Assembly (NCBI GenBank): GCA_016432365.1
Contig: CP066686.1
Location: 793,501-857,500 of the forward strand
Length of the DNA: 64,000 bases
Source of the DNA: Candidatus Woesebacteria bacterium
Lineage (GTDB): Bacteria > Patescibacteriota > Microgenomatia > UBA8517
Direction: 5' to 3'
Shown: positions 15,520-43,935 of the stretch, piece by piece
Layout of the letters: each line of letters begins with the position of its first letter
How positions within the stretch are numbered: the first letter of the stretch is position 1
The notes under the pieces: generated by a model
The model's input: the letters and a program-made list of their open reading frames with translations, nothing else
Told to the model about the DNA's origin: nothing
Databases searched by the model: none
Translations under genes and position numbers: made by a program

Positions 15520-17598
15520 ATGACAATAGAATCGCAAATTATGGGTAGTTCTGAGCAAAATGAAACTTATTTAGATGCGGGTGAGCCTTCGAGGAGCTTC
15601 AACGGCATGGATTGGAAATATCAGATACAGTTTGCTAAAGATCACCTAGGTTTTGAGTCTGAGAACAGCATCCGTGAGGCAGCCGATATTTCTTCAAGAA
15701 CCGTTAATGTTGCCTTCCCGTCATTCTCAGTCAGGGCCGGGATAAAAGCGATGATCCATTCCGTTCGTGAAAATACAGTTTTTTATCCGAAATTATTAGA
15801 TGAGGGTAATCACATTGGGCTAGGAGTTGCTCATGCTCACTTTGAGCTCCACCCACCTAAATCACTAACAAACAAAGAGGACCAGACGGCCTTCAAAACC
15901 CAGGCAAAAAGCACTATCACCAATCTGCTTAGGTGGCATGAATTAAAGGCTATTCAAACGGTAATGGAAAAATCCGGTCGAAATTCCATCGAAGGAATTG
16001 ATCAACAGATGTCTAAAGCAGATCTCGCCACTCTACTTGATACCAACGAGAAAGCAATTAACCAAGGGGTCCATACACTTGAATTACTGGCAAAAGGGAT
16101 AAGACCAACTCAAGTAGGAGAGTTGGATAGGGAAAGAATTGCAACAGCGCAAAAAAAGGGCAGAGAAATAAAATTTACTTTTAAGAGGGGGCTTGTAAAT
16201 ACGGTTCTAACAGCCTCTGTCGACAGCAGTGTCGAAGAAGCTGTGCAGAAAATCCGCCGTTTCAGAAGTATAAGAAGAAATGTATCTATTACTTCGGTTG
16301 GGTTGGCATTTACAATATCTTGTTGTGCTCCAACAACGTTTCCCGTTGTTTTTACCGAAACCCCGACAACTACACCTGCTACCTCGCCGACACCGGAAGC
16401 AACATCTACCCCCGAAATCCCTTTTGGATTACCCATTTCCCAGGCCGACATAAATAAGTTTTTAGACGGTAATACTGATCCAAATATCGACCCCCAAAAA
16501 ATCCAGGGGTTTGATATGGGGGCCGAAAAATTACTTTTTGGCCAAGGCAAAGACGGCCTTAATTACGGAAGAATTTTTGTTAACGGTGTATGGAAAGCTA
16601 TCTACGGAACAGTTGCTCCCGACAATTCGGTCATTTGGGCATTGCCGAAAGGTGGCGCGACCCCCGTTGCTCCCGGGACCGCAATTTCGGATTTTGATGT
16701 TGTTCTGACAATGGACTTGCGAACCGATGCCCAGGGAAACATTATTGCACAATACACCCCTCCCGAAGAATCTAAAGATCAAAACGGAGGTAAAGTTTTC
16801 AAAATATCAGTTGACAGTCCCATTGCTTCAGGGATAAAAATGGCCGCACCTATAGATTTTGAAATACAGAAAGCATTACTACCCGAAAATCTGGGGGGAG
16901 ACACCAGATATTCAGATGAAATTCAAAAACACCAATGGGAATACGGAGTTGATGAGAAAACTGGAAACAAGGTAATCAAAGTAAACTGGACGGATACCGT
17001 TGACAAAAAGGGTAAACCTAATTATGAAGTAGCCTATGAAAAAGTTGGGGATAATTGGGAAATAAGGAAATTTGTACTAAAAAGATGGGAAGTAGATATC
17101 AGCAAGATGACCTGTGTGGATATACAGGATAGAAGTAAGGCAGGTAGTTGTGTTCAGGAAACTTTAGAAAACCCAGTACTTTTTTATGTTAAATTCAAGG
17201 CCGGTGACTTGGTAATGGAACAGAGAAAAGACCCGTTTACGGGTGAAGTTTTGCCCGGATCAGTAATTTACACATATGCACATACTAGAAGGGTTCCAGG
17301 TGGACCGGAAGAGGTTGTAAAAATTGCTGTACAAATTGATATTGGTGACGGTATAGATATTTTGCATAGCCCGACCAAAACTAAGCCGGTGGTTTCAATT
17401 TTTGATGTTTCCCGTAAACTATCAAGCGACGACGCAATTACTTATATTTTCACCAAAAGTAAATATAATGAATATGACCACGACTACTATAAATGGCTGA
17501 ATGTATTAATATCTTTCCAAAAGCAACTATACGATGGTGTATTTGATCCTTCAACAATATTTTATCCAGTTGGTTTCACAATTGGACCTGTGTATTAA
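15520..17598 (+). CDS. large hypothetical protein (692 aa) with an internal Thr/Pro-rich linker
   Basis: No family recognised. The internal hydrophobic segment TISCCAPTTFPVVF is followed by the linker TPTTTPATSPTPEATSTPE. Long ORF with consistent codon usage. Confidence 0.45.
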   Translation: MTIESQIMGSSEQNETYLDAGEPSRSFNGMDWKYQIQFAKDHLGFESENSIREAADISSRTVNVAFPSFSVRAGIKAMIHSVRENTVFYPKLLDEGNHIGLGVAHAHFELHPPKSLTNKEDQTAFKTQAKSTITNLLRWHELKAIQTVMEKSGRNSIEGIDQQMSKADLATLLDTNEKAINQGVHTLELLAKGIRPTQVGELDRERIATAQKKGREIKFTFKRGLVNTVLTASVDSSVEEAVQKIRRFRSIRRNVSITSVGLAFTISCCAPTTFPVVFTETPTTTPATSPTPEATSTPEIPFGLPISQADINKFLDGNTDPNIDPQKIQGFDMGAEKLLFGQGKDGLNYGRIFVNGVWKAIYGTVAPDNSVIWALPKGGATPVAPGTAISDFDVVLTMDLRTDAQGNIIAQYTPPEESKDQNGGKVFKISVDSPIASGIKMAAPIDFEIQKALLPENLGGDTRYSDEIQKHQWEYGVDEKTGNKVIKVNWTDTVDKKGKPNYEVAYEKVGDNWEIRKFVLKRWEVDISKMTCVDIQDRSKAGSCVQETLENPVLFYVKFKAGDLVMEQRKDPFTGEVLPGSVIYTYAHTRRVPGGPEEVVKIAVQIDIGDGIDILHSPTKTKPVVSIFDVSRKLSSDDAITYIFTKSKYNEYDHDYYKWLNVLISFQKQLYDGVFDPSTIFYPVGFTIGPVY

Positions 17599-17658: not shown

Positions 17659-19455
17659 GTGGTTAAAAAGATCTTATTTCCAATACTTCTGATACCTATC
17701 ATCGTGTATTTTTTCTTAAATAGCGCACCGCAAGTGGACGCGACCAATGGTTGCGGAGGGTCAAGTGTGTGTAACAGTACAGTAGTTCACAACAGTTATA
17801 CTTGCAGTTTATCTGGCACAACGTGCAGTAGAGTTTTTTCAGGAACCTATACTTCTGACTGTCACGTATCGGAGAATGATTGCTGGACAAATAGTGCTGA
17901 CGCCTCCTGCGCTTTAAATGGCGATGAGTGTGTGTTGTCTATTAAAAGCAGAAAATCCAGCTGTTGTGGTTCGCCGGGTGGTGGGGGGGCCGGTGGGGGA
18001 AACTGTAACGGAATCTATACCGTCGAGACCAGCTGCGTCGACCCGGACAGATGCAAGAATGAAAACGGCGGACGTTGTGATATTAATGGTAATGTGTGGT
18101 GTTCAAGAATCGTCTGTGGTGCTTGCCCCGCAACGACTCCCGTCATTGACCCAATAACAACAACAGCAACAACTGCAACAATTAGCTGGACTGCAACAGG
18201 CGGCACATCTACAAAACTTTATATCACCACCGATTCAAATGACTTTAACCATAATTGCGCCGGTACAAATTTCTGTGTTTTTAAGGGTAATGCGCCTGCT
18301 TCACCCTACACCGTAACGGGCCTAACTCCGGGGGTTAAATACTATGTAAAGGTTTTAAACAGCTATGTGCAAGGTCAACAGTCTTGTAATACAGAAGCAA
18401 CTGCCGACTTCACCACATCTTGCACGTTAATCGCTCCTCCGTCGTTGTCCATGAAAGTTGGCGACCCGTCCCAAGCATTTGTTGTAAATCTTAACCCAAA
18501 TAACACAGGTCTCACTGTCGGCTTCGTTGCAACACCTTCAGGAATCATTGATTTTTCCACGAACCAAGGAAATGCCGGCAATGGCTATCAAACAAATATT
18601 TCGGCGGTAGCAGCCGGACCAACAACAATTACTTCTTTTGTGACGAATCCGTCCTGCCAGGCACAAACGTCGGTAAACATTACAAACAATAATGCCGGGG
18701 CTTGGTGGCAAGTGAAGGATGCCGATCTTTCGGCCAATGGTGATATTAACAGTAGTGTTCCTGACGGACAGTATTTTGATCTTGATGGAAGCGGAGGCTA
18801 CCCCGGAGTTCCAACTTATTCGTCGGCCTCGAATCTGACAAACACAAACGTGTCATTGAACTCAAAATGGCTGGCTCAAAGTACTACGGTTGGCAGCAAG
18901 AATTATGACTATCAATTTTTTGCAAATCAGGTTCCTACCGATACCGTGACTACAACTATTCCCAACGGCAATGTCGACGGTAGTTTTTTTGAAAGCGGGG
19001 GAACCTTGTCTTACGGATATTATTGGTACAAATATACCGGAAGTGGGACAAATCTTTCAATTGACACGCCCGTTAATTTAACAGGTACAGATAGAAAAGT
19101 TATACTTTTGGTTGAAGGAACGGGACTTACTATAAAAGGAAACATCAATTTAACCGACGGACGGGAATTTTTTGGAGCATTCGTAAATGGGGCAATTGAC
19201 GTTGACCCACTTGTAACCTCACTCGAAGGAATTTATTTGGCAGATTCTACTTTTAGTACCGGGGCTGGTAATACAAAGCTTACAGTACGGGGTTCTGTCG
19301 CTACCTACGGAGGTACATTCCTGCAAAGAGACTTGGCAACAGGTGCAGGTAATACCGGCCCTGCTGAGTTATTTGAATACGCCCCAGACCAGATTCTTAT
19401 GTTCCCCACAAGGCTCGGCGCCAGGAAAATAAGCTGGAAAGAGATAGCTCCATAG
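17659..19455 (+). CDS. secreted Cys-rich protein with an FN3-like domain
   Basis: Signal peptide, then a ~130-aa segment with more than 20 Cys including CCGSPGGGGAGGGNC, then an FN3-like ISWTATGG...YTVTGLTPGVKYYVKV, then a beta-rich C-terminus. Confidence 0.45.
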   Translation: MVKKILFPILLIPIIVYFFLNSAPQVDATNGCGGSSVCNSTVVHNSYTCSLSGTTCSRVFSGTYTSDCHVSENDCWTNSADASCALNGDECVLSIKSRKSSCCGSPGGGGAGGGNCNGIYTVETSCVDPDRCKNENGGRCDINGNVWCSRIVCGACPATTPVIDPITTTATTATISWTATGGTSTKLYITTDSNDFNHNCAGTNFCVFKGNAPASPYTVTGLTPGVKYYVKVLNSYVQGQQSCNTEATADFTTSCTLIAPPSLSMKVGDPSQAFVVNLNPNNTGLTVGFVATPSGIIDFSTNQGNAGNGYQTNISAVAAGPTTITSFVTNPSCQAQTSVNITNNNAGAWWQVKDADLSANGDINSSVPDGQYFDLDGSGGYPGVPTYSSASNLTNTNVSLNSKWLAQSTTVGSKNYDYQFFANQVPTDTVTTTIPNGNVDGSFFESGGTLSYGYYWYKYTGSGTNLSIDTPVNLTGTDRKVILLVEGTGLTIKGNINLTDGREFFGAFVNGAIDVDPLVTSLEGIYLADSTFSTGAGNTKLTVRGSVATYGGTFLQRDLATGAGNTGPAELFEYAPDQILMFPTRLGARKISWKEIAP

Positions 19456-19492: not shown

Positions 19493-21334
19493 ATGGAGAT
19501 TCTGCATAATTCTTCATCGCCTGAGTTAGTACTACCCCCCAGGTTGGAAGATTTGATTGCAAAAGAGCCACTGCTTCAAAAAGCATGGGCTGTTGCAGAA
19601 GAAAATCATGCAGGACAATTCAGAAAAGACGGAGTTACTCCTTATTTTACCCACTGCGTGGGAGTAACAAGAATAATGTATGAAGAGTGGGGAATAACTG
19701 ACCCGGAAAAACTTGCTGTAGGACTCCTTCATGACACGGTTGAGGATACCAATTTGACAATTGAAGATATCCATATCGCCTTCGGTGAAGAAGTGGCCTT
19801 TGGCGTTGAAAGTGTTACCCAATTTAGTCCGGAAAAAGAAGCAAAGCAGATTAAGACAGTGGCCGATCTTGAAAATGTCAGAAAGGTTTTTGCAAAAACT
19901 TTGGTCAAACCGATTGTGGCTATTTATAAACTCGCGGATAGGCTTTATAACATGAGAGATATGGCTACAATGCCTCAGGAAAAGCGCGTGGCAAAGGCTA
20001 TTGAAACTCTAAATGATTACGCACCGCTTGCAGAGTCACTTGGTATGTGGGTAGTAAAAAGAGAGTTGGAAAATTTATCACTTCAATTTACCGATCCAAA
20101 AAATTTTGATATTTACTCAGATTTGATGGAAAAAGATCCCCGTACAAATGAGCATTTTATTGCTTATATGACATCATTTTTAACCGAAAAGTTAACAAAC
20201 GAGGGGATTGGATGTGAAGTATCCTACCGCAAAAACAGTTTGGCAAGAATTATGGATAAGGCGAAAAATAATCTATTTAAAGATATTGACGATGTAATAA
20301 GTTTCCGTGTAATGGTTAATGCAAAAGATGAAAGAAGTGTCAGGGATGAATGCATGAAAGTGCTTGGTATTATTTGGGAAGAGTTTGGAGGCACCGAGGA
20401 TCAAAAAAGATTTGATAATTTTTATTTTGTTCCCAGAGACAATGGCTATAGCGCTTTTCAGGTAACGCTAAATCTCCCCCAAGGCGCCGTTAAAATCGCT
20501 GTGGCTTCAAAAGAGAAAGAAGATTACAACAATTGGGGCGTCTTGAGTTTACTTAAAAAAGGGGAAACCGACCTCAAAAAATATGCTTTAAAACTTGTTT
20601 TTACTCCGGCTGGCGAAGTTAAATTTTTTCCATCAGCAGCAAACGGTTACGACTTCGCTTACCATATTGACGAAAAACTTGGGGCCCAGGCAGTAGAAAT
20701 GTTAGTCAACGGCGAAAAACGCGATCTTGCAACAATAATTCCAAACGGATCTGTCGTCAAAATTCTGGGAGGCGAAGAAAGAATTGCTCCTGATGCTGAT
20801 ACTATTTACCATGTTTTACCCAAAACCAAACAAAAAATCAGTAAGCAATTTTTGGAATTGGAAATGGCCCAACAGCAAAAAAAAGGCCGTGAAATTGTCA
20901 CAAAAATAATTTCTAAAAGAGGGCTATTAAACCTATATGATGTTTTGAGATTAAAAGAATATTCGAGAAAAATTATGGATATCCTGGACCAGCTTGGAAG
21001 CAAAAGTTCTTTAGCCAGGCTGTATCAATCAATCGGTTCCGGAGTTGTCAGTGAAGAAGATTTGGTTGCCGAACTGGACAGAAACGGAATAACAAAAGAG
21101 GAAATGGGTTTTACTTCAATATTTGTTGAAGGACCTGATGGGCCGGGACGACTTAATTTCTTTACCTCCGAAGTCGAGAAACTTGGAGGAAACATCCGTA
21201 GAAACTATGGGGAAAGCGCCAACCAAATTTTTACTCAACATTTAGTTATTGAGAATTTAAATGGGGAAGCAGAGAAAAGATTGGAGGAATTGCTTAAAAA
21301 AGATCCCAGGGTGTCTAAAGTCGTTGTTGTTTAA
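19493..21334 (+). CDS. rel: bifunctional (p)ppGpp synthetase/hydrolase (RelA/SpoT family)
   Basis: HD hydrolase motifs HAGQFRKDG..PYFTHCVGV and LLHDTVEDT. Synthetase motif RDNGYSAFQVTL. C-terminal TGS/ACT-like region. Confidence 0.8.
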   Translation: MEILHNSSSPELVLPPRLEDLIAKEPLLQKAWAVAEENHAGQFRKDGVTPYFTHCVGVTRIMYEEWGITDPEKLAVGLLHDTVEDTNLTIEDIHIAFGEEVAFGVESVTQFSPEKEAKQIKTVADLENVRKVFAKTLVKPIVAIYKLADRLYNMRDMATMPQEKRVAKAIETLNDYAPLAESLGMWVVKRELENLSLQFTDPKNFDIYSDLMEKDPRTNEHFIAYMTSFLTEKLTNEGIGCEVSYRKNSLARIMDKAKNNLFKDIDDVISFRVMVNAKDERSVRDECMKVLGIIWEEFGGTEDQKRFDNFYFVPRDNGYSAFQVTLNLPQGAVKIAVASKEKEDYNNWGVLSLLKKGETDLKKYALKLVFTPAGEVKFFPSAANGYDFAYHIDEKLGAQAVEMLVNGEKRDLATIIPNGSVVKILGGEERIAPDADTIYHVLPKTKQKISKQFLELEMAQQQKKGREIVTKIISKRGLLNLYDVLRLKEYSRKIMDILDQLGSKSSLARLYQSIGSGVVSEEDLVAELDRNGITKEEMGFTSIFVEGPDGPGRLNFFTSEVEKLGGNIRRNYGESANQIFTQHLVIENLNGEAEKRLEELLKKDPRVSKVVVV

Positions 21335-26187: not shown

Positions 26188-26940
26188 CTATAAACCTAAA
26201 AATATTAATAACTCATGACCAAATAAAAGAGTAAATAAAAGTCCGATTACCAAAAACGGTCCGAATGCTATTTGATCCTTTAGTCTTGCTCGACCACCTA
26301 GAATTAGTATGATTCCGGCGATTCCTCCTGTCAAGAAAGATAAAAAAAGCCATATAAGACTCAGCTTTAGTCCGATTAGAAGTCCACCAAAAACAGCAAA
26401 TTTTACATCACCTAGGCCCATGCCACGGCCACGGGTAAAAATGTGAATTAACAACAGTAAAAACGCTGAACCGAATCCGGCAAAAATATTTGGATACAAA
26501 ATTCGGCTATCTGTTAAAAACAGAAAAAGAAAGATCAAAAGAACTCCTAAAAAAACAAAATAATCCGGAATGATTTTATGCTCAAAATCAATTATAAAAA
26601 TCAAAATCAAAATTGAAAAAACAGAAAGTGAGTAGAGAAGTAAGAAAATGTTCATATTAAAAAGGTTAAACAAACACAAAAAGCCTAGGGCAGTAAATGC
26701 TTCAATTAAAGGATATCGGAATGAAATGTGTTTCTTACAATTTCTACATTTTCCACCTAAAAATAAATAAGAAAGTAGGGGAATATTGTCGTACCAAAAA
26801 ATTTGTTTCTTACAACTGTCACAAAAGGAACGACCCTTAGCGTTGGAAATTCCACGGGGATAACGCCACGAAAATGCTGCATAGAAAGATCCAAATACTA
26901 AACCGAGTAAAATAAACAACAATTGTTGAAGCAATATCAT
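26188..26940 (-). CDS. pilD: prepilin peptidase (A24 family, PilD)
   Basis: Zinc-binding Cys pairs (CDSCKKQ, CRNCKK), a multi-TM core and the GDVKF-type Asp motif. Confidence 0.8.
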   Translation of the reverse strand: MILLQQLLFILLGLVFGSFYAAFSWRYPRGISNAKGRSFCDSCKKQIFWYDNIPLLSYLFLGGKCRNCKKHISFRYPLIEAFTALGFLCLFNLFNMNIFLLLYSLSVFSILILIFIIDFEHKIIPDYFVFLGVLLIFLFLFLTDSRILYPNIFAGFGSAFLLLLIHIFTRGRGMGLGDVKFAVFGGLLIGLKLSLIWLFLSFLTGGIAGIILILGGRARLKDQIAFGPFLVIGLLFTLLFGHELLIFLGL

Positions 26941-27608
26941 TCAGGGACACATTCGGAGCAGGCTCCAGTTGTCCAGCCCGCATCATTAACTGCGGTGCAG
27001 GCTCCGGCGGCCGGAACTCCTGAAGCTGTAAGAGCTTGGGTTGTATCAAACATCTTGTTAGTGTTTGACGCTGCGCTTGCAATCAAGACTTGTCTGTTGG
27101 AATTTGATTTTGGTGACCAACATACATAGACAGCCGCAGATGCTCCCTGGGCTTTACCTACAAATAATTTAGCCTGGGTACTGGTTGGACCAACCCAGTT
27201 TTTGTTTAAAAATGTCTTTTGCAATTCCAACGAAGCTATAAGCTCACCCGAGTTTGCCGTTGTTCTACAAGACGTCCCGTTCGCTCCACAAACTCCAACT
27301 GAGGCGTCATCTGCACTCAAAAATGGAAATGCATCGTCCGGACCCTGACCAACCCCATCTAAACACTGCGTACCACCATTTGTTGTACAAGCAGACGAAT
27401 TCCAAGGAAAAGCACTATGAGAAACATAATATCTCTGAATGGCCGAAACAATCTGACTGGCATCCGCTTTCATTCCGGCATCTGATGCCCGATTTGCTTG
27501 TTCAATGGGGTTAATAGCCGCAATAACAATTGTTGCAATAATACCAAGAAGGGCAATAACAATAAGAAGCTCAACTAATGTAAATCCTTTGGACAGATAC
27601 TTTTTCAT
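26937..27608 (-). CDS. type IV pilin-like protein (first gene of the pilin array)
   Basis: MKKYLSKG, then FTLVELLIVIALLGIIAT. C-terminal Cys residues. Confidence 0.7.
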   Translation of the reverse strand: MKKYLSKGFTLVELLIVIALLGIIATIVIAAINPIEQANRASDAGMKADASQIVSAIQRYYVSHSAFPWNSSACTTNGGTQCLDGVGQGPDDAFPFLSADDASVGVCGANGTSCRTTANSGELIASLELQKTFLNKNWVGPTSTQAKLFVGKAQGASAAVYVCWSPKSNSNRQVLIASAASNTNKMFDTTQALTASGVPAAGACTAVNDAGWTTGACSECVPE

Positions 27609-27665: not shown

Positions 27666-28202
27666 TTAAAATAACTTCAATTTCAGCCCGGCCAACATAA
27701 GCGCGGCCATTGAAGGACCATTAACAATTTCTTCGTTTTCAATCATCTGCAAAACTTCCTTGAACGAAACTTTCTTCATATCGTCAATGCCTTCCTCCGC
27801 TTTTTCGTTTTCTTTTGTTAATTTAACATCCTTCGCAACAAAAACGTGCGACATCTGTCCCGTCATGCCGGCCGCGACTTCCAATTCTCCTAATTTTGAC
27901 CAGTCTTTTGACACAAGTCCTGTTTCTTCTTTGAGTTCGCGTTTGGCTGCTGAAAGTTCATCTTGATTGTCGGAAGACCCGGCAGGAATTTCCCAATTAG
28001 ATTTTTTTGTAAAGTATCTGCTCAGATGTATCAAATAAACTTCGTTATCCCGTGTTAAGGGAATTATAAATACAACCGATGGACGGTCTATGACATAAAA
28101 AACTGCATCGCGTCCGTTGGGAGTAATGACTCCATCCTCTCTGACACTAAATCTTGGGTTTTTGTGAACTACTTTTGATGACTTTGTTTTCCAATCATTC
28201 AT
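27666..28202 (-). CDS. NUDIX hydrolase
   Basis: Nudix box EIPAGSSDNQDELSAAKRELKEETGL. Confidence 0.7.
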   Translation of the reverse strand: MNDWKTKSSKVVHKNPRFSVREDGVITPNGRDAVFYVIDRPSVVFIIPLTRDNEVYLIHLSRYFTKKSNWEIPAGSSDNQDELSAAKRELKEETGLVSKDWSKLGELEVAAGMTGQMSHVFVAKDVKLTKENEKAEEGIDDMKKVSFKEVLQMIENEEIVNGPSMAALMLAGLKLKLF

Positions 28203-28542
28203 TTTTTCTGATTATCTCGTGTTTAAACCACTTTTCCTGAAACTCAATTTGTTTTTCTATTTCCTCGTCTGACAAGGAGGAACCCTGTCCAACGACAATC
28301 AACTTATCTTCATTATCGTTCGTACGGTGAATTACAGCAATGCAAATACCTTTAAATTTATCCAAGGGTTTGTCCTCACCCAGGATAAACGCATCCAACT
28401 CATCTCCGTCACCCGAAGTTGTGTTCGGAATGTATCCATAGTTAATTGGATAAATATAATTATATTCAGGGTGTCTGCTCCCGAGAGGGCGGTCAATTAC
28501 AACTTCAACTTCTTTTCCCAAAAAATCTTTTGCGTTAAACAT
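28195..28542 (-). CDS. N-terminally truncated inorganic pyrophosphatase-like protein
   Basis: DRPLGSRHPEYNYIYPINYGYIPNTTSGDGDELDAFIL matches the family-I PPase signature D-x-D-x-L-D, but the ~40 N-terminal residues of canonical PPase are missing. Start taken at MFNAKDF. Confidence 0.45.
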   Translation of the reverse strand: MFNAKDFLGKEVEVVIDRPLGSRHPEYNYIYPINYGYIPNTTSGDGDELDAFILGEDKPLDKFKGICIAVIHRTNDNEDKLIVVGQGSSLSDEEIEKQIEFQEKWFKHEIIRKNE

Positions 28543-29077
28543 TTTTATACATTTGAATGTCATCCACCATTTTTCCTTTATATAAATTGCCGCCCGGAAG
28601 CATTCCGTATTGCACAAACCCAAAACTTTTATACATGTTTTGGGCTTTTTCGTTTTCTGCAAAAACCTCAAGCGTAACAATTTTTAATTTTGAAAGTTTT
28701 TTGGCTTCGTCTAAAACCAATTTCATCAATAGTTTCCCTAGTCCCTTACCACGGTATTCTTTAGCTAGTGAAATTCCAAAAACTCCGATATGGCTTTTTA
28801 TTCTATTTTTAAGATCTATTGCAGTAACTCCTGCAATCTTACCGTCAACAAAAAGCAACAGTTGAACAGTTTCCTTTTTTCCAATTTTTTCAAGTTGCCC
28901 TTTAAGATATTTTTCTTCATCAGTAATTGTCATTTGCTCGCCTTGCATCATAATGTATGTTTTTTCTTTGGATAACGTATTTATATATTCGCACATCACC
29001 CCAGCATCCCCACTTTTGGGATATCTGACAACAATTTCTTCGCCATTTATAGTTTCATTAAATACTATATGTTCCAT
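28535..29077 (-). CDS. GNAT-family N-acetyltransferase
   Basis: Motif A HIGVFGISLAKEYRGKGLGKLLMKLVLDEAKK; C-terminal FGF/YG. Confidence 0.75.
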   Translation of the reverse strand: MEHIVFNETINGEEIVVRYPKSGDAGVMCEYINTLSKEKTYIMMQGEQMTITDEEKYLKGQLEKIGKKETVQLLLFVDGKIAGVTAIDLKNRIKSHIGVFGISLAKEYRGKGLGKLLMKLVLDEAKKLSKLKIVTLEVFAENEKAQNMYKSFGFVQYGMLPGGNLYKGKMVDDIQMYKNV

Positions 29078-29124
29078 GGAACGATTTTATCATTTATCAC
29101 ACAGATGGCCAAGCTCTGCTTATC

Positions 29125-29724
29125 ATGTCAGATGGTATAATTCTTATTATGTATACCGAATTTGAGGCGACATTTACAAACATTGATAAAGACGACACAA
29201 GAAATCGTCTTAAAAATGCGGGGGCAAAATTGATCCGTCCTGAGTTTATGCAAAAACGAGTAGTTTTTAATCTGCCAAAAGGTCACGAAATCCCAGGCGG
29301 CTGGCTTAGAGTCCGCGACGAAGGGGATAAAATCACAATGAGTTTAAAAATAGTTAACGGAGGCAAAATTGACGACCAAAAAGAAACACAATTAACGGTT
29401 AACAGTTTTGACGAAGCAGCAACAATTTTGGAAACAATAGGTTGCGACAAAAAAGCCTATCAAGAAAGTAAACGCGAACTTTGGGAGTTGGATGGGGTGG
29501 AAATTACAATTGATGAATGGCCATTTTTGGAGCCGATTGTAGAAGTTGAAGGAAAATCCGAAGAGGAAGTTAAAAATGTTTCGGAAAAGCTTAATTTTGA
29601 TTATAAAAATGCAAGGTTTTGCGCGGTGGACGTTTTATATAGTGAAAAATATGGAATAAGCCAAGATAGAATAAACAATCACACCCCCGAAATTTTATTT
29701 GACGGGGAAAACCCTTTTACTTAA
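29125..29724 (+). CDS. CYTH-domain (triphosphate tunnel metalloenzyme) protein
   Basis: N-terminal YTEFEATF (ExExK-like start), then RVRDEGDKITMSLK and a C-terminal EIE-like segment (VEITIDEW..EPIVEVEG). Confidence 0.55.
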   Translation: MSDGIILIMYTEFEATFTNIDKDDTRNRLKNAGAKLIRPEFMQKRVVFNLPKGHEIPGGWLRVRDEGDKITMSLKIVNGGKIDDQKETQLTVNSFDEAATILETIGCDKKAYQESKRELWELDGVEITIDEWPFLEPIVEVEGKSEEEVKNVSEKLNFDYKNARFCAVDVLYSEKYGISQDRINNHTPEILFDGENPFT

Positions 29725-30229
29725 AATGAACGACTTCAAAACATACACAGATTACAAGACAGTCCTTTCCGTAAACGCCTTAATTTTTTCCGAAGGCAAA
29801 ATTTTAATGCTTAAAAGAGCGGATGACAAAAAAATTGATCCCGGACTTTATTCCGGGATTGGCGGAAAAGTAGAACCTCACGAAAGTTTTTATAATGCAA
29901 TTCTTCGTGAAATCAAGGAAGAAACAGGTTTGACAGAATTTAAATCAATAAAACCTTATTCGGTTACTCAAATCCCGTACCCACCCACGGACTCTGAATG
30001 GGTAAATGTCTATTTTATTGTCCATATTACGAAACAGGTTGAATTAGAACCAACTGAGGACGGTACATTTCATTGGGTAGGCATCGAAGAAGCCTTAAAA
30101 CTACCAACACCGAACGATGTCCACGATTACCTGGAGATTCTTTCTAAAGACCCCAACGCCTTCATTTTTGGTTTTTATGACCACGACAAGGAAGGAAACC
30201 TAACAAACAAAAAAATTAAAGTTGTCTAA
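29699..30229 (+). CDS. NUDIX hydrolase
   Basis: Nudix box GIGGKVEPHESFYNAILREIKEETGL. Confidence 0.7.
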   Translation: MTGKTLLLKMNDFKTYTDYKTVLSVNALIFSEGKILMLKRADDKKIDPGLYSGIGGKVEPHESFYNAILREIKEETGLTEFKSIKPYSVTQIPYPPTDSEWVNVYFIVHITKQVELEPTEDGTFHWVGIEEALKLPTPNDVHDYLEILSKDPNAFIFGFYDHDKEGNLTNKKIKVV

Positions 30230-31431
30230 AAAGAACTTGTTAAATTGTAAATCGGAAGAATAACAGCAATAACTAAAAATCCAACCCCAAGCCCTAGCAT
30301 TATCATAACCAATGGTTCTATTGCAGCTGTCAAGCCTTTTACCTTCTCGTCGCTTTCCATTTCAAAAATGTGGCTGATTTTGGTTAAAACATCGTCCATT
30401 TTTCCCGTTTCTTCACCCACCGCAATCATCTGAGAAAGTAAAAAGGGGAAAGCCTCGGGGTGCCTTGCAAAGGAAAAGGCGATAGGGAAACCCTTCTCCA
30501 CCTGTCTGGAAACATCTTTTAATGCATCGGAGATGACACTATTTGATACAACTTCACTTGTAATGTTCAAGGCCTCAAGAATTGGAACACCGGCCCCCAC
30601 CATTAAAGACAGGGTTCTTGTAAGTTCTGTCAAAATTACTTGTTTTTGCAGGTTCCCGAAAATAGGAATTTTAAAAACCATTTCATCGACTTTTTTCTTT
30701 CCCATTGCGGTGCTCCTGTAAAGTGTAAACAAATAGTAACCAACACCTCCGATTGCTAAAATGACAAACCAGTAATTAACAAAAAAACCGGAAATTCCCA
30801 TTAAAATTCGCGTAGGTAAGGGGAGTGTGGCATTAAAATCACCATAAAGCGAAGTCAGTTTGGGAATAACAAAAATCATCATTATAAAAACAACTACAAC
30901 CATACCTACCCCGATTATCGCAGGGTAAATTAAAGCCCCTTTAACTTTACCGTTAAATTCTTGCTGCTTTTCCAGGGTATCTGCCAATCTAAGAAGCACG
31001 GCATCCATAACACCCCCGACCTCACCCGATTTAACCAAGGATAAATAAGTTCTGGTAAAAATTTTGGGGTGTTTATTCATGGCACTCGAAAGAGATTCTC
31101 CGGCTTCAACATCCGCCAAAATCTGGGCAACAACTTTTTGCATAGCCCCATTGCTTTGAGATCTAAGTATTAGAAGTGCTTCCGTGATGGGTAGCCCGGC
31201 TCCGATCATTGTTGAAAGCTGACGGGTGAAAGTTGAAATGTCCCCTGTTGTTATCCGTTCTTTGAATTTCTTTACAATCGAAAATGGTGAATCCATTTTC
31301 TCGGAAATAGAAATAACATAAAAGCCCTTGCCCCGAACCAGTTTTGCCGCATGGCTCGTGTCACTCGCCTCGACTTCTCCTGACACCAATCTTCCTTGTC
31401 TGTCTTTGGCCTTGTAATTAAATCTTTTCAT
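30226..31431 (-). CDS. pilC: type IV pilus inner-membrane platform protein PilC (GspF family)
   Basis: Duplicated GspF domains and three TM helices. Downstream of pilB and pilT. Confidence 0.8.
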   Translation of the reverse strand: MKRFNYKAKDRQGRLVSGEVEASDTSHAAKLVRGKGFYVISISEKMDSPFSIVKKFKERITTGDISTFTRQLSTMIGAGLPITEALLILRSQSNGAMQKVVAQILADVEAGESLSSAMNKHPKIFTRTYLSLVKSGEVGGVMDAVLLRLADTLEKQQEFNGKVKGALIYPAIIGVGMVVVVFIMMIFVIPKLTSLYGDFNATLPLPTRILMGISGFFVNYWFVILAIGGVGYYLFTLYRSTAMGKKKVDEMVFKIPIFGNLQKQVILTELTRTLSLMVGAGVPILEALNITSEVVSNSVISDALKDVSRQVEKGFPIAFSFARHPEAFPFLLSQMIAVGEETGKMDDVLTKISHIFEMESDEKVKGLTAAIEPLVMIMLGLGVGFLVIAVILPIYNLTSSF

Positions 31432-37728: not shown

Positions 37729-38205
37729 ATGGATTTTAAAGCGTTCATCGAAATTCCACTAAACTCAAACATTAAATATGAAGTGGATGAAGAAACAGGG
37801 GAGCTTACAGTGGATCGATTTCTCCATACAGCGATGAGTTATCCTTTTAATTATGGTTATGTTAAAGAAACAAAGGGGAAAGACGGCGACCCGCTTGATG
37901 TTTGCATTTTTTCCTCTCTTCCGGTCACCCCCGGGGTGGTTATGAAATGCCATGCTATCGGCCTTTTGGAAATGGAAGATGAAGGGGGAATAGATACAAA
38001 AATCTTTGCAGTTCCGGATAAAAAAATTGATCCGATATTCGGAGTTTGGACAAGTGTCAAAGATGTCCCGGAAGTAGTTCTAGCCAGAACCAGACACTTT
38101 TTCGAACATATGAAAGAGCTGGAACCGGGGAAATGGGTAAAGACGGGCGAATTTAAAGACGCCTCGGAAGCAGAAAAAGAAATTGAGGCTTCCAAAAATA
38201 AATAG
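37729..38205 (+). CDS. ppa: inorganic pyrophosphatase (family I)
   Basis: EIPLNSNIKYEVD, YPFNYGYV and DGDPLDVCI. Confidence 0.8.
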   Translation: MDFKAFIEIPLNSNIKYEVDEETGELTVDRFLHTAMSYPFNYGYVKETKGKDGDPLDVCIFSSLPVTPGVVMKCHAIGLLEMEDEGGIDTKIFAVPDKKIDPIFGVWTSVKDVPEVVLARTRHFFEHMKELEPGKWVKTGEFKDASEAEKEIEASKNK

Positions 38206-39008: not shown

Positions 39009-39659
39009 TTGCAATGGTATACTAAATTGATGCTTAAAATTGTCTCCTGGTTATTAATAATTTTAGGACTCGCCTTGCTAATTTTTATTTTTGGACCCGT
39101 TATTAAAGAGGAAATTAAATACAGCTTTGATCAGATGTCTCGTGTTAAATACGTCATAGGCACTGAACAATTGGATACTTTTGAAAAACCGCTCACTCCA
39201 CCAAACACAGATTTCTCTGTAATTATCCCCAAAATAGGTGCCGTGGCTGCAATTTCCGAAAACATAGATCCCAAAGACTCGAGTACTTACCTACCGGCTC
39301 TCAAAAACGGACTAGTACAGGCCACAGGGTCGGCCAACCCGGATAACGATGGAAATATCTACCTTTTCGCTCATTCGGCCGACACTTTTTGGCATGTTAA
39401 TACTTACAACACTAAGTTCCTTTTGATAGATAAATTAGCCCTGGATGACGAAATTGATATTTTTTACAAAGGTAGACTAATAAAATATACCGTTTTCAGC
39501 AAAAAAATCATAGAAACGCAGGCTGCAGTATTTACGGGTAGCCTTGACCCGGACTTAAACCCCTCCGGCTTTATAAAAACACTCACCATTGAGACCGGCT
39601 ACCCGGCCGGGACGACTTTCAAAAAACTCATAGTTACGGCATGGCAGGTGAATCCTTGA
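39009..39659 (+). CDS. sortase-fold homolog lacking the catalytic Cys and Arg (pseudo-sortase)
   Basis: N-terminal TM anchor. GNIYLFAHS retains the His, but TLTIETG replaces the TLxTC Cys motif. Aligns with the true sortase at 44751. Confidence 0.4.
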   Translation: MQWYTKLMLKIVSWLLIILGLALLIFIFGPVIKEEIKYSFDQMSRVKYVIGTEQLDTFEKPLTPPNTDFSVIIPKIGAVAAISENIDPKDSSTYLPALKNGLVQATGSANPDNDGNIYLFAHSADTFWHVNTYNTKFLLIDKLALDDEIDIFYKGRLIKYTVFSKKIIETQAAVFTGSLDPDLNPSGFIKTLTIETGYPAGTTFKKLIVTAWQVNP

Positions 39660-39708: not shown

Positions 39709-42700
39709 GTGAAAAACAAACTTTTTAGAAAAATAATCTCGGTATTCGCAACTTTTGCGCTTCTTTTTAATTCTGTTGCACCTTATTCGCTTGCAGTCGC
39801 GCAAGAAATAACCCCAAGCCCAACACCCGATGCAACCACTCAACCGACAGAGCAGCCAACGATTGCACCCACAGACACCGTTTCACCAACAGCCACACCA
39901 GATGCAACACCAACAGAAATAGCCAGTCCAACACCAGAGGTAACAGCAACACCTACCGATTTAGCAACACCGACACCTTCCGAAACCCCAGCCGAAACCC
40001 AAGCACCGGAAAGCAGCCCCACAGTTCAAGGACCACCCTCAGATGAAAATAAACAAATAAACGAATCTGCAAATCTACAAATTTCCACACCAACTGCAAC
40101 GCCTGTAGTGCCAGTTGAACATGGAAACATTACAACCACCACAATAGAAAATGTCGATCTTTCGGGCATAACATTACTTAACTCAAATTTAAACGGGGCA
40201 TCTGTTACAACAGATAAACCAGATTATTCACCCACAAGCATTGTTCTTATTACCGGCACGGGTTTTACAGCAGATAAAACATATACTATAGTGATATCCT
40301 CAACCGACGAGCCTCCGGTAACCCATATAGATAGTGTAACCGCCGACACCCAAGGAACTTTTAGTTACGCCTACCAGCTCGATGGCAACTACCGACCGGA
40401 TTATAAAATTGAAGTAAAGAGTGGGGAAGTGGTGGTAGCATCAACAAGTTTTACTGACAATGGGGCAAAAATTGACAAACTCTATAAAAACGCTGGTCTT
40501 TTAACCGAGGGTTATCAATTTGCTGTCAATGAAACTGTATATGCAAAAGCGACCAATTTAACCACAAGTCGTGGTTATAAATTTGAAGCAAAAAATTCTT
40601 CAGGGGTATCAATGTACCTGGGTGCATGTAAAACAGGTTCAACAACTGCTAGCGACTCTTTTACTCCTACAACCGTGTCAGGAAGTTCAAGTTGGACTTG
40701 GATTCTACATGAATGGTCGTCAAACACTTGTTCAAGCGGTCCACAAAGCGAAGATTCTGACAACACACTCGCATTCAACGTAGCACAAGCTACCGCCTAT
40801 ACAACATCGGGGTTGTCTACCACCACAACATCTTACCTAACCGGTGCAACGGCGTATGTCAAAATAAATGGTCTACATCAAAACGATAACGATTGGGATG
40901 TTACCTGGATTAAACCAGACGGTACTACTGCCTGTGCAAATACAAGTAGTGGTGATCGTCCAAACTCTTCCAGCAATGGGGTCCTCCCTGATTCGTCTCC
41001 TTCGTATTTAGAATACCAACCAAGTACAGGTAGTAATAACTGGAACGATCCAACAAAGTATGACGGTTCTTGTCCGGCTTTTACCAGTGGAAATACAGGT
41101 CTTTGGAAATTAATCGTATCCCAAGACTCAACACACACAGTTACTTTTTCCGTATTTTCTGTAGCAACACCTTTAGATACCACACCACCCAACACAACCA
41201 TTGACTCCGGACCAAGTGAAAATGTACCAAGTACCTCAGCAACATTTGCATTTAGCGCTAACGAAACATCGACTTTTGAATGTAAATTGGATGGCGCATC
41301 ATTTTCAACTTGTACATCAACAAAATCATATTCAAGTCTTTCTCAAGGGTCCCATACATTCCAAGTTAGAGCTACCGACACGGCAGGGAATGTCGACTCT
41401 ACACCTGCAAGTCAAACTTGGACAGTTGATACGGTTGCTCCAACAATTTCAGCAGCAGTAAGTGCAGGGACACTTGGTTCAAATGGTTGGTACACAAGCG
41501 ATGTTACGGTTCATTTCACCTGCGCTGATACAGGAGGGTCCGGAATTGCATCTTGTCCGACAGATCAAATTTTAAGTACAGAAGGAAGCTCTGTAAGCTC
41601 AACTGCTCAAACAGCCACAGATAATGCGGGTAACACCAGCGCATTAAGCAACGTTGTTACTGTAAAAATCGATAAAACAGGTCCTACTGCTACCCTTGTA
41701 GTTACAGCTGGGGACTTGGGCCTAAACGATTGGTACACAAGCGATGTTACGGTCGCTACAAGTTGTTTTGATGGAATTAGTGCCATTACCGCATACACAT
41801 CTGATCAATCTCAAACAACCGACACGGCAGGACAAACTTTCAACGGATGGTGTGAAAACTGGGCAGGCTTAACTACAAACGCCTCACCATTAACTATCAA
41901 ATTGGATAAAACATCCCCAACTGCAACATTCAGTTATTCAACAACATCACCTACAAACAGTGATGTTCTTGCCACCCTAGTTCCAAGTGAGACGGTCACG
42001 GTTACCAACAATGGAGGACTTTCGACATATAATTTTACATCGAACGATTCTTTTACTTTTGAATTTAGAGATGAGGCCGGTAACATCGGAACTGCAACCG
42101 CAACTGTAGACAATATAGATAAAACTGCCCCAACTGTTACATATACCGACCCAACACCGGCAAACGGAACTCTTACAAACATCAATAACCACACATTTAA
42201 AGTTTCTTTAAGTGAAGAAGTTTCCAGCTGTAAATTAATCGCCGAAAATGGAGATTTCGAAAATGGCCTAAACGGATGGACAACTGGGGGCAACACAGCC
42301 CTAACTACCAGTACTTACCACTCTTCAAACCATAGTTTACAACTCCAAACAACAAACGATAATGTGGGAGGTAGTTATAACTACGCATTTACTACAGCAA
42401 ATCTTCCTGGAAGTGGTTTGATCAATTTAAATGCATGGCTAAGCCGTTCAACCACTGACGGACCTTATTGGGATCAACAGAGAATTTATTTAACCGATCT
42501 TTCAGGAAATATGTTGGTTGATTTGTTATATGGCCTTGAAAATTCAAGTTGGACGAATGTGAATTATGATATTTCTGCATACGCCGGACAATCCGTAAGG
42601 GCCTATTTTGCAGTACACGATGACGGGGCCGGCGACCCTTCCAGAATGTTTGTTGACGACGTTTCAATTACCGGTGGTTTCCAAGGCGGTGAGCACCCAA

Positions 42701-43935
42701 TGGTTGTCGATGGATTAGAAGCTACTTTAGATTGGAACGATATGCCTGATGCAAATTACAATCATTATGTCCAATGTACAGATTTGGCAGGAAACAATGG
42801 AAATTCAGAAAATAGGACATTAACCATTGATACTCAAGCGCCAGTTCTTTCCGACAAAACAGCATTTGACGATTCCTGGTACACAAGCGACCAAACATCG
42901 AATTTTGATTATTCAGATGTAAACGGTATTGCCTCGGGCAACCCCGCCAGTTGTGTAATTTCCACAGAAGGCTCTGCTCAAACTTGTGAGGTTATTGACC
43001 CCAATGTTTGTGACAATGCCGGAAATTGTAACCACGACACGGTTACATCTAATGGCGTAAATATCGACAAATCCGGTCCAACTTTGTCAGCCGATCCGCC
43101 GGCTGGCAACTACAGCTCTACTCAATTCGTTACCTTAACCGGAAGTGATGCTGGAAGTGGAGTAAAAGACATTTATTACACAATTGACGGTTCAACACCC
43201 GATGAAACAAAAACTCTTTACACGAGCGGGTCAACAATAACAGTAGATGACGATATGACCATTAAGGCAATTGCGTATGACAATATTGGTAATGCGAGTG
43301 ACGTATTGGTAGCTACCTATGGAATGGCGCCTGTTATATCAGCTGAGGATGGTATGGGTTCGGGTCATACATCCGCGAGAATTACGTGGACAACTGATAG
43401 GCCGGCAACTTCGAGAGTTGTTTACGACACAGTAAGTCATCCAGCTCTGGATAGCGAACCCAATTACGGATACGCCTTTTCAACAGGGACTTTTGATACA
43501 GATCCAAAAGTGCTGGCTCACTCAATCTCAATTGACGGACTTTCTGCAGGGACAACTTATTACTACAGAACAATCTCAACCGGTTCGCCGGCAGCTATTG
43601 GAGCTGAACACTCACTTTCTACACTTACATACTCAGGACCACCCAGCGCAGGTGGTAACAGTGGAACAGTTCTTGGAATCTCCACAACACAAGCTGACAG
43701 TTCATGGCCCAAGCTGGCCTTTGCAGGAACAACGGATTCTAACGGTTCAACCGAGAATGTTCTTGGAACCGAAACAACAGCCGGTACACCCTCCGCCGAC
43801 TCAACCATACAGACGGAACAAGATGAAAAAGTAAACTTTATGAAGTGGATATTGAGTCACAAGAAGATTTCCCTGGGAGTTGTCCTAGTCCTAATCGCTG
43901 TTGGTTATTACATATCTAAAAGGAAAAATAAGTAA
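39709..43935 (+). CDS. giant cell-surface protein (1408 aa) with a signal peptide, Thr/Pro linker and C-terminal TM anchor
   Basis: Signal peptide, a PTPxATP-type linker (residues ~35-110), many Ser/Thr-rich beta domains with repeated DKTxPT / WYTSD units, and a C-terminal TM segment plus KRKNK. Confidence 0.55.
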   Translation: MKNKLFRKIISVFATFALLFNSVAPYSLAVAQEITPSPTPDATTQPTEQPTIAPTDTVSPTATPDATPTEIASPTPEVTATPTDLATPTPSETPAETQAPESSPTVQGPPSDENKQINESANLQISTPTATPVVPVEHGNITTTTIENVDLSGITLLNSNLNGASVTTDKPDYSPTSIVLITGTGFTADKTYTIVISSTDEPPVTHIDSVTADTQGTFSYAYQLDGNYRPDYKIEVKSGEVVVASTSFTDNGAKIDKLYKNAGLLTEGYQFAVNETVYAKATNLTTSRGYKFEAKNSSGVSMYLGACKTGSTTASDSFTPTTVSGSSSWTWILHEWSSNTCSSGPQSEDSDNTLAFNVAQATAYTTSGLSTTTTSYLTGATAYVKINGLHQNDNDWDVTWIKPDGTTACANTSSGDRPNSSSNGVLPDSSPSYLEYQPSTGSNNWNDPTKYDGSCPAFTSGNTGLWKLIVSQDSTHTVTFSVFSVATPLDTTPPNTTIDSGPSENVPSTSATFAFSANETSTFECKLDGASFSTCTSTKSYSSLSQGSHTFQVRATDTAGNVDSTPASQTWTVDTVAPTISAAVSAGTLGSNGWYTSDVTVHFTCADTGGSGIASCPTDQILSTEGSSVSSTAQTATDNAGNTSALSNVVTVKIDKTGPTATLVVTAGDLGLNDWYTSDVTVATSCFDGISAITAYTSDQSQTTDTAGQTFNGWCENWAGLTTNASPLTIKLDKTSPTATFSYSTTSPTNSDVLATLVPSETVTVTNNGGLSTYNFTSNDSFTFEFRDEAGNIGTATATVDNIDKTAPTVTYTDPTPANGTLTNINNHTFKVSLSEEVSSCKLIAENGDFENGLNGWTTGGNTALTTSTYHSSNHSLQLQTTNDNVGGSYNYAFTTANLPGSGLINLNAWLSRSTTDGPYWDQQRIYLTDLSGNMLVDLLYGLENSSWTNVNYDISAYAGQSVRAYFAVHDDGAGDPSRMFVDDVSITGGFQGGEHPMVVDGLEATLDWNDMPDANYNHYVQCTDLAGNNGNSENRTLTIDTQAPVLSDKTAFDDSWYTSDQTSNFDYSDVNGIASGNPASCVISTEGSAQTCEVIDPNVCDNAGNCNHDTVTSNGVNIDKSGPTLSADPPAGNYSSTQFVTLTGSDAGSGVKDIYYTIDGSTPDETKTLYTSGSTITVDDDMTIKAIAYDNIGNASDVLVATYGMAPVISAEDGMGSGHTSARITWTTDRPATSRVVYDTVSHPALDSEPNYGYAFSTGTFDTDPKVLAHSISIDGLSAGTTYYYRTISTGSPAAIGAEHSLSTLTYSGPPSAGGNSGTVLGISTTQADSSWPKLAFAGTTDSNGSTENVLGTETTAGTPSADSTIQTEQDEKVNFMKWILSHKKISLGVVLVLIAVGYYISKRKNK

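Follow-up and report, generated by a model that had tools for sequence, protein, structure and literature searches.

Type-I inorganic pyrophosphatase (PPase) domains devoid of the hairpin that joins core strands 1 and 2 have been described by Iyer et al. 2017 (J Bacteriol, PMC5512222) under the name of 'InPase'. Related domains are neighbours of NUDIX and GNAT domains or are fused to them, a link to TmrB is also mentioned, and the domains were proposed either to act on a nucleotide-like substrate or to clear inorganic pyrophosphate (PPi) (PMC5512222). Other relevant enzymes are the house-cleaning pyrophosphatases of nucleoside triphosphates (NTPs), which the passage of PMC3899018 citing Galperin et al. 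2006 distributes into the NUDIX/MutT, Maf, ITPase/Ham1/RdgB and all-alpha MazG/dUTPase classes, and the CYTH or triphosphate-tunnel metalloenzymes (CyaB, thiamine triphosphatase, tripolyphosphatases). The locus dealt with here is an island of five small genes occurring in a 64 kb stretch of DNA (the window, i.e., the whole stretch that was analysed) from a member of the Woesebacteria (Patescibacteria) with a genome of ~1.08 Mb. The island encodes a GNAT N-acetyltransferase, a short PPase (sPPase) and a first NUDIX hydrolase (NUDIX1) on the minus strand, and a CYTH protein followed by a second NUDIX hydrolase (NUDIX2) on the plus strand (Table 1).

The cluster adds one more case to an association that the literature has recorded before and does not constitute a separate new system; its point of interest is the sPPase family more than the cluster itself. 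The reading preferred here, to which a probability of about 0.55 is given, is that of a loose, fast-evolving house-cleaning island in which the sPPase core is functionally coupled to its NUDIX and GNAT partners, most simply by clearing their PPi. With respect to the InPase domains (PF18823), sPPase shares the predicted type-I core of the oligonucleotide/oligosaccharide-binding (OB) fold with no hairpin between core strands 1 and 2, as well as the vicinity of, and fusion to, NUDIX and GNAT. It differs by a score under the PF18823 cut-off (16.2 vs 26.8 bits), by a better fit to PF00719, and by its occurrence as a stand-alone chromosomal gene instead of a domain of the polyvalent proteins of phages and conjugative elements; among 99 representatives of the fusions described below, PF18823 was recognized at E<=1e-3 in only 4. 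The island resembles the house-cleaning enzymes by its MutT/NudI-like NUDIX2 and by the Maf, Ham1p_like, NTPase_I-T and MazG-like replacements found in relatives, whereas such enzymes are normally scattered in genomes and are here grouped about a dedicated minimal PPase, together with GNAT and CYTH. A search of the literature on 'InPase' yielded only the report of Iyer et al. 2017 and no later characterization, and nothing relevant was found on truncated PPases in Patescibacteria or on NUDIX proteins in the candidate phyla radiation (CPR).

Fold and active site of the short pyrophosphatase

The sPPase polypeptide matches the profile PF00719 with 38.6 bits, over the gathering score of 23.5, and stays under the NCBIfam 'inorganic diphosphatase' equivalogs (29.9 vs 200 and 28.6 vs 246). 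Its true start is the ATG at 28542, which gives a protein of 115 amino acids, and not the TTG of a 161-aa open reading frame (ORF). The DGDELD signature pointed out in the initial annotation is indeed kept, at residues 45-50 (28393-28410, minus strand). In the structural model, a five-stranded barrel is completed by one helix and a terminal strand; the model has no hairpin between strands E11-18 and E34-38, and points to a family-I PPase fold cut down to its OB-barrel core. No solved structure for the sPPase family was found by sequence search. Compared to the canonical enzyme (E. coli Ppa, PF00719), sPPase is ~60 residues shorter, being devoid of the internal β-hairpin with K29 and E31 (~residues 20-41, numbered as in E. 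coli), of the 8-residue segment carrying Y141-K142 and of the C-terminal helix; R43 either has no counterpart or is replaced by R18. The claim of the initial annotation that the N-terminal ~40 residues are lacking is imprecise: sPPase retains the N-terminal strand of its OB barrel, and has lost an internal hairpin and been trimmed at the C-terminus.

The alignment to the E. coli enzyme equates Y31 and Y35 of sPPase to Y51 and Y55, D45, D/E47 and D50 to D65, D67 and D70, D76 and D/E78 to D97 and D102, and K80 to K104, and the complete cluster of metal-binding aspartates (D65-x-D67-x-x-D70, D97, D102) is found in sPPase. Position 47 is occupied by D in the window protein (D45-G-D47-E-L-D50) and by E in most members of the family, in which D76 and D79 are invariant and D or E occurs at position 78 without exception. 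The phosphate-binding residues (K29, R43, Y141 and K142, plus E20 and E31) are not preserved as a set. Just one of E20 and R43 has a possible counterpart, in the invariant pair D17-R18, and the choice depends on the alignment: the pair aligns equally well to E20-I21 in strand 1 and to D42-R43 at the end of the hairpin, and MAFFT, hhalign and the inspection of motifs disagree. Both alignments would be accounted for if ~residues 20-41 had been excised so that strand 1 runs directly into D42-R43. In the established enzymology of PPases, the leaving phosphate is held in a cradle made of K29, R43, Y141 and K142. From these alignments, the site appears to keep its metal-binding and nucleophile-activating half, most of the leaving-phosphate cradle being lost, and R18, R73 and H24 occur as new invariant residues of the sPPase family.

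The full-length canonical ppa gene, which the initial annotation had correctly reported, lies ~9 kb from sPPase and, since the host genome carries this gene as well, sPPase looks like an extra, specialised paralogue. The canonical protein is itself just 158 aa long and reads H-M-K in the MAFFT alignment, where E. coli Ppa has H-Y141-K142; by this comparison the housekeeping PPase of the host appears somewhat reduced too.

More than 2150 homologues of sPPase were found, the best 120 of which are mostly 111-117 aa long and share 62-87% identity, and at least 576 sPPase loci occur in the species-representative genomes of GTDB. The family is distributed among Patescibacteria, gut metagenome-assembled genomes (MAGs) labelled as Alphaproteobacteria, Clostridia, Bacilli and Tenericutes, at roughly 60% identity, and its members are universally annotated as 'inorganic diphosphatase'. 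It represents a minimal family-I fold (~112 residues), strongly conserved over distant phyla and devoid of several residues regarded as indispensable to the binding of PPi.

Genomic linkage, natural fusions and turnover of the island

The neighbourhood of sPPase was analysed in 84 non-redundant loci, using heuristic ORF calls, iterated profiles for NUDIX, GNAT, MazG and CYTH, and distances of up to 10 kb, with a distinction between near ORFs (within 3 kb of sPPase; 628 ORFs) and far ORFs (beyond 5 kb; 468 ORFs). The share of NUDIX among the ORFs decreases with distance, from 9.6% below 1 kb and 8.9% at 1-2 kb to 3.1% at 2-3 kb and 1.2-1.4% beyond 5 kb, which corresponds to 49/628 near vs 6/468 far ORFs (odds ratio 6.5, p=2e-7). 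GNAT follows the same trend (22/628 vs 4/468, p=0.004), and MazG-like ORFs were encountered six times near sPPase and never far from it. A coarser comparison of adjacent ORFs with ORFs located 4-5 genes off was non-discriminating for NUDIX (12/147 vs 8/150). The clustering around sPPase exceeds chance.

Natural fusions associate the same domains within single polypeptides. A profile search for the sPPase domain over 1.84 billion cluster representatives gave 2250 matches, and among 99 long representatives, 23 contain a NUDIX and ~11 a GNAT domain, in either order (NUDIX-sPP 11, sPP-NUDIX 10, sPP-GNAT 6, GNAT-sPP 3). Other partners, fused or neighbouring, are P-loop kinases (AAA_33, AAA_18, Zeta toxin), 2H phosphoesterases and HAD proteins. 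Four fusion clusters were checked, with 225, 3, 9 and 34 members on many contigs; the larger ones (225, 34 and 9 members, many independent contigs) are reproducible. In view of these fusions, the GNAT-sPPase-NUDIX1 operon of the window represents a recurrent trio in its unfused state. Both junctions of this operon, GNAT/sPPase and sPPase/NUDIX1, consist of 8-nt overlaps of the ATGnnnTAA/TGA type, which are typical of translational coupling, and the three genes are accordingly predicted from their sequence to be translationally coupled.

Fusions of sPPase to NUDIX and GNAT in both orders would also be expected from a dedicated pathway, in which sPPase, NUDIX and GNAT, with or without CYTH, sequentially process one specific nucleotide-like molecule, such as an antibiotic of the nucleoside or aminoglycoside type, a nucleotide signal of phage/host conflict, or an acetylated or ADP-ribosylated metabolite, and in which sPPase cleaves a phosphoanhydride inside that substrate instead of free PPi. 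The loss of the cradle accompanied by the rise of the new invariants R18, R73 and H24 fits a changed substrate, the P-loop kinases, 2H phosphoesterases and HAD proteins among the partners are compatible with such a pathway, and the possibility, with its link to TmrB, was raised by Iyer et al. 2017 (PMC5512222). However, the set of partners is too variable for a fixed pathway, and no NUDIX occurs within 3 kb of sPPase at 57 of the 84 loci. Concerning phage/host conflict, NUDIX2 matches the PADLOC candidate PDC-S07 (E=1.5e-12), which may reflect generic NUDIX similarity, the match of GNAT is marginal, and PADLOC returned nothing for sPPase, CYTH and NUDIX1 nor any defined anti-phage system, so that four of the five window proteins are left with no meaningful match. 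The sPPase family is essentially absent from sequenced phages, a single weak match being obtained in a phage collection, and a search of PHROG gave nothing for sPPase or CYTH. Taken together, a dedicated pathway seems unlikely. A phage or defence origin of the cluster, considered separately, was rejected on the grounds of the single weak phage match, the lack of a PHROG for sPPase and CYTH and the lack of a convincing PADLOC system.

The conservation of the island was followed by searching the four partner proteins (tblastn) against 80 genome loci carrying sPPase, the source genome being L001. The exact five-gene set was found in the source genome only. Orthologues of the partners are limited to a handful of Patescibacteria, the other 70+ loci containing none of the four, and when the neighbouring ORFs were clustered de novo, no one family of orthologous neighbours proved to be conserved. 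A conserved five-gene operon was therefore rejected, the same set and order not being recovered in relatives. Nevertheless, the genes are not simply scattered: subsets of them recur beside sPPase in related Patescibacteria, with no fixed composition. In the close relatives the slot of sPPase is constant, upstream of the pilin and pilD genes and downstream of pilC wherever pilC is present.

Depending on the relative, the content of this slot varies widely. In L002 and L082 (sPPase 86-87% identical, 86% in L082; PilC 95%), an IS200-type Y1 transposase, Maf, CYTH, GNAT, sPPase and NUDIX1 occur without NUDIX2. Woesebacteria GW2011_GWB1_39_10 (L003, sPPase 81%) possesses only CYTH and sPPase, i.e., two of the five genes, while L084 (77%) contains a transposase, a 26-aa remnant of NUDIX2, a NUDIX gene, sPPase and NUDIX1, i.e., two or three of the five. 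All five families are encountered in L085 (73%) but rearranged among extra genes: five NUDIX, one of them a 79% identical orthologue of NUDIX2, Ham1p_like, a CYTH-like protein, HAD and GNAT (61%), with epimerase genes upstream instead of pilC. In L088 (69%), sPPase is located between an NTPase_I-T-NUDIX fusion and five further NUDIX genes. Orthologues of NUDIX2 (64-79% identity) occur near sPPase in L085 and in two other Patescibacteria, L007 and L060.

Traces of this turnover are visible in several loci. The sPPase homologue of L003 (P0004, L003:10001-10411) ends in ...IRLAGLKLKLF, a tail identical to the last nine residues of the window NUDIX1, and appears to be the footprint of an in-frame deletion that removed nearly all of NUDIX1 and fused its end to the PPase. 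An IS200/IS605-type Y1 transposase adjoins pilC in the island slot of L082 (L082:3477-4169) and of L084 (L084:4674-5360), in which the NUDIX2 remnant (around 5436) lies next to it; the transposases in the slot and the remnant point to a transposon-driven turnover of the island. In two Patescibacteria loci, a fusion of NTPase_I-T to NUDIX (~313 aa; L088:3183-4124 and L091:8491-9435) is located near sPPase or CYTH. NTPase_I-T is the family of the ITP/XTP pyrophosphatase YjjX (PMC3899018); this protein is another house-cleaning fusion. The record of L002 (CAZBTH010000002.1) is titled 'uncultured Gammaproteobacteria', yet its proteins share 87-99% identity with those of the window over the pil genes and the island, and it appears taxonomically mislabelled, as may be L010 and L072, which bear the same label.

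The grouping of these genes could also be a neutral co-location: the interval that separates pilC from the pilin gene would be a hot spot of gene flux, in which small dispensable genes accumulate without any functional relation. The IS200/IS605 transposases of L082 and L084, the deletion fusion of L003 and the NUDIX2 remnant of L084 are all in keeping with it, and so is the GC content of the island (37.3% vs 41.1% for the rest of the window, 2nd percentile among windows of the same size). However, flux alone leaves unexplained why the genes gathered are nearly all nucleotide hydrolases, and it has to face the decay of NUDIX with distance about sPPase in unrelated phyla, the repeated independent fusions and the 8-nt translational coupling, all of which render neutral co-location improbable.

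Partner enzymes and possible function of the island

The two NUDIX proteins, which both belong to the NUDIX hydrolases by their Nudix box, differ in their relatives. In the precomputed annotation, NUDIX1 associates an NDPSase_N domain, the N-terminal extension of NDP-sugar hydrolases, with the NUDIX domain. Its closest solved relatives are NudF and the ADP-ribose pyrophosphatases (5c7q, E=4e-17; 1mk1, E=8e-14). The core of its Nudix box is intact (R88-E89-x2-E92-E93-x-G95, read as R88-E-L-K-E-E-T-G-L), the first half being atypical, one residue shorter and with D replacing E, and NUDIX1 is predicted to be an ADP-ribose/NDP-sugar pyrophosphatase-like hydrolase. NUDIX2 displays a perfect box (GX5EX7REUXEEXGU), G47-KVEPH-E53-SFYNAIL-R61-E-I-K-E-E-T-G-L, extending to L69 (29864-29932). 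Its closest solved relatives are the MutT-related 3grn, the CTP pyrophosphohydrolase 2rrk and NudI 6dt3, which suggests a MutT/NudI/NudG-like NTP pyrophosphohydrolase of the type that converts an NTP to the nucleoside monophosphate plus PPi. The GNAT protein contains the acetyl-CoA motif A (R/Q-x-x-G-x-G/A) in the form R-G-K-G-L-G and belongs to the family by this motif and by its PF00583 match, and no NCBIfam equivalog reached its cut-off.

The CYTH protein matches the general domain PF01928 (34.5 vs 23.2 bits) and, like the known triphosphate-tunnel enzymes, conserves both signature glutamates and many Arg, Lys and Glu residues of the tunnel. It differs from them by its signature E-F-E-A-T in place of ExExK, the lysine being replaced by threonine in 15 of 16 aligned homologues and kept in the remaining one, by a score below the cut-off of the cyaB equivalog TIGR00318 (34.9 vs 57.95 bits), and by the lack of any solved relative detectable by sequence search. 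The CYTH family of Patescibacteria comprises 2801 homologues, the best 120 at 66-94% identity; in other loci, CYTH homologues adjoin NUDIX or HIT genes. Several sources label them as 'class IV adenylate cyclase' despite the E-x-E-A-T signature.

This label has a bearing on the proposal of the initial annotation that the genes form a coordinated module acting on nucleoside polyphosphates or alarmone-like molecules. Spelled out, such a module would make or degrade alarmones or second messengers (guanosine tetra- and pentaphosphate, (p)ppGpp; diadenosine tetraphosphate, Ap4A; cyclic AMP, cAMP), with CYTH as a class IV cyclase or triphosphatase, the NUDIX proteins as degrading enzymes and a functional tie to rel. 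Certain NUDIX enzymes have (p)ppGpp or Ap4A as substrate, some annotations do make CYTH a cyclase, and rel, which the initial annotation placed 8 kb away, is located at 6-8 kb. However, CYTH scores under the CyaB equivalog and has lost the signature lysine, rel lies on the opposite strand past the entire minor-pilin operon, neither riboswitch, regulator nor effector was detected in the cluster by Pfam and Rfam, and its members are freely lost or swapped in relatives and replaced by house-cleaning enzymes. An alarmone module is very improbable. What stands of the proposal is the non-accidental co-location, borne out by the NUDIX/GNAT linkage across phyla and by the fusions; a fixed module and the alarmone tie do not, rel being unlinked and riboswitches lacking. 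The alternative offered in the initial annotation, a house-cleaning role, is better supported because Maf, Ham1/ITPase, NTPase_I-T, MazG-like and HAD proteins, the replacements found in relatives, are classical house-cleaning enzymes.

In the house-cleaning island, the five enzymes would most likely be independent hydrolases and transferases acting on damaged, surplus or by-product nucleotides, and not the subunits of one machine. NUDIX, Maf, Ham1/ITPase, NTPase_I-T and MazG-like enzymes all release PPi. The sPPase would hydrolyse the PPi, or a PPi-like phosphoanhydride on a nucleotide-derived product, released by its partner NTP pyrophosphohydrolases, namely NUDIX2 in the window and Maf, Ham1 or MazG-like proteins elsewhere, and would thereby render the partner reactions locally irreversible. 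The analysis establishes which genes are present, how the operons are built, the fold, which residues are conserved, the genomic linkage and the fusions; the substrate and the coupling are inferred. Patescibacteria, whose genomes are very small, are generally held to rely on nucleotides that they scavenge, and a dedicated, constantly reshuffled nucleotide-sanitising island would be, for this reason, part of their way of coping with damaged building blocks.

Several points weigh against the house-cleaning island with a PPi-clearing sPPase. NUDIX1, the partner coupled to sPPase, is of the ADP-ribose type, which yields AMP and ribose-5-phosphate instead of PPi, the product of the canonical ppa, located at a distance of 9 kb, could clear PPi anyway, and the GNAT has no explained role. 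The linkage of NUDIX is strong in Patescibacteria (11/17 loci with a NUDIX within 3 kb), moderate in the MAGs labelled as Alphaproteobacteria (14/41) and weak in Bacillota (2/26), the ORFs were called heuristically, and the p-values are optimistic because the loci are phylogenetically non-independent. Biochemical data on the short PPase family were not found in the literature. Finally, PPi is possibly not the substrate of sPPase, because it has kept just one of the four residues by which canonical PPases bind the leaving phosphate. In this respect, it may tentatively be considered that sPPase (111-117 aa) is no inorganic pyrophosphatase, and that its retained two-metal centre cleaves the phosphoanhydride of a nucleotide-derived substrate in physical association with the NUDIX/GNAT partners. 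The outcome would be a new unit of two or three enzymes for nucleotide processing, present in the window in its unfused, translationally coupled form, together with a new nucleotide-processing activity and the correction of a widespread misannotation. If sPPase is a true PPase, it would be the smallest functional one and informative for the catalytic mechanism.

Organization and surroundings of the locus

The five genes and families reported in the initial annotation were recovered, with Pfam matches for all five, and an independent gene calling on the identical public contig gave the same five genes with the same lengths (Table 1). The two sets had been described as convergent; they are divergent, the two mini-operons being arranged head to head. 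The island is wedged inside a type IV pilus cluster, between pilB-pilT-pilC (34344-30226, minus strand; T2SSE and T2SSF annotations; pilB and pilT precede pilC) on one side and the pilin, pilD and minor-pilin genes (27608 downwards), also on the minus strand, on the other side.

Table 1. Coordinates (window numbering) of the genes of the island and of other features of the window.
Feature	Positions	Strand	Remarks
NUDIX1	27666-28202	-	178 aa; PF00293, E=1e-12 (Pfam); last gene of the minus-strand mini-operon
Short PPase (sPPase)	28195-28542	-	115 aa; PF00719, E=1e-9
GNAT N-acetyltransferase	28535-29077	-	180 aa; PF00583, E=6e-17, 62.5 bits; heads the minus-strand mini-operon
Divergent intergenic region	29078-29148		promoter-like sites facing both ways
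CYTH	29149-29724	+	191 aa from ATG 29149; PF01928, E=2e-8; longest ORF from 29125 (199 aa)
NUDIX2	29726-30229	+	167 aa from ATG 29726; PF00293, E=2e-18; longer ORF from 29699
pilC	30226-31431	-	T2SSF annotation; upstream border of the island
Pilin gene	26937-27608	-	N_methyl annotation; downstream border of the island, kept in relatives
Prepilin peptidase pilD	26188-26940	-	Peptidase_A24 annotation; after the pilin gene
Canonical ppa	37729-38205		PF00719, 178 bits
Rel/SpoT homologue	19493-21334		
Sortase gene	39009-39659		
1408-aa ORF	39709-43935		adjoins the sortase gene
598-aa ORF	17659-19455		contains FN3
692-aa ORF	15520-17598		no Pfam match

In the intergenic region, the minus strand contains a promoter-like match (TTGGCC-17-TAAAAT with TG, 29112-29084) and the plus strand an extended -10 match, TGGTATAAT, at 29131-29148, only ~9 nt before the ATG of CYTH; both are matches to the consensus only. 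Given this short distance, CYTH and NUDIX2 may be transcribed with little or no leader. Because of the position of this extended -10, the start at 29125 is considered not to be used, and the ATG at 29149 is probably the true start of CYTH, as in the NCBI protein P0271 (191 aa). NUDIX2 starts 1 nt past the stop codon of CYTH. At the opposite end, the stop codons of NUDIX2 and pilC form a 4-nt convergent overlap (30226-30229), and no terminator-like site is present between the two stops. An Rfam scan of the cluster revealed no riboswitch or other RNA element, e.g., linked to (p)ppGpp or to phosphoribosyl pyrophosphate (PRPP). NUDIX1 and NUDIX2 are the only NUDIX genes of the 64 kb window.

The HD_4 hydrolase domain of the Rel/SpoT homologue is strong (95 bits), whereas its RelA_SpoT synthetase domain barely passes the threshold (27.6 vs 27 bits), and for this reason the protein may be mainly a hydrolase. 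The three large ORFs of 1408, 598 and 692 aa listed in Table 1 probably correspond to surface proteins.

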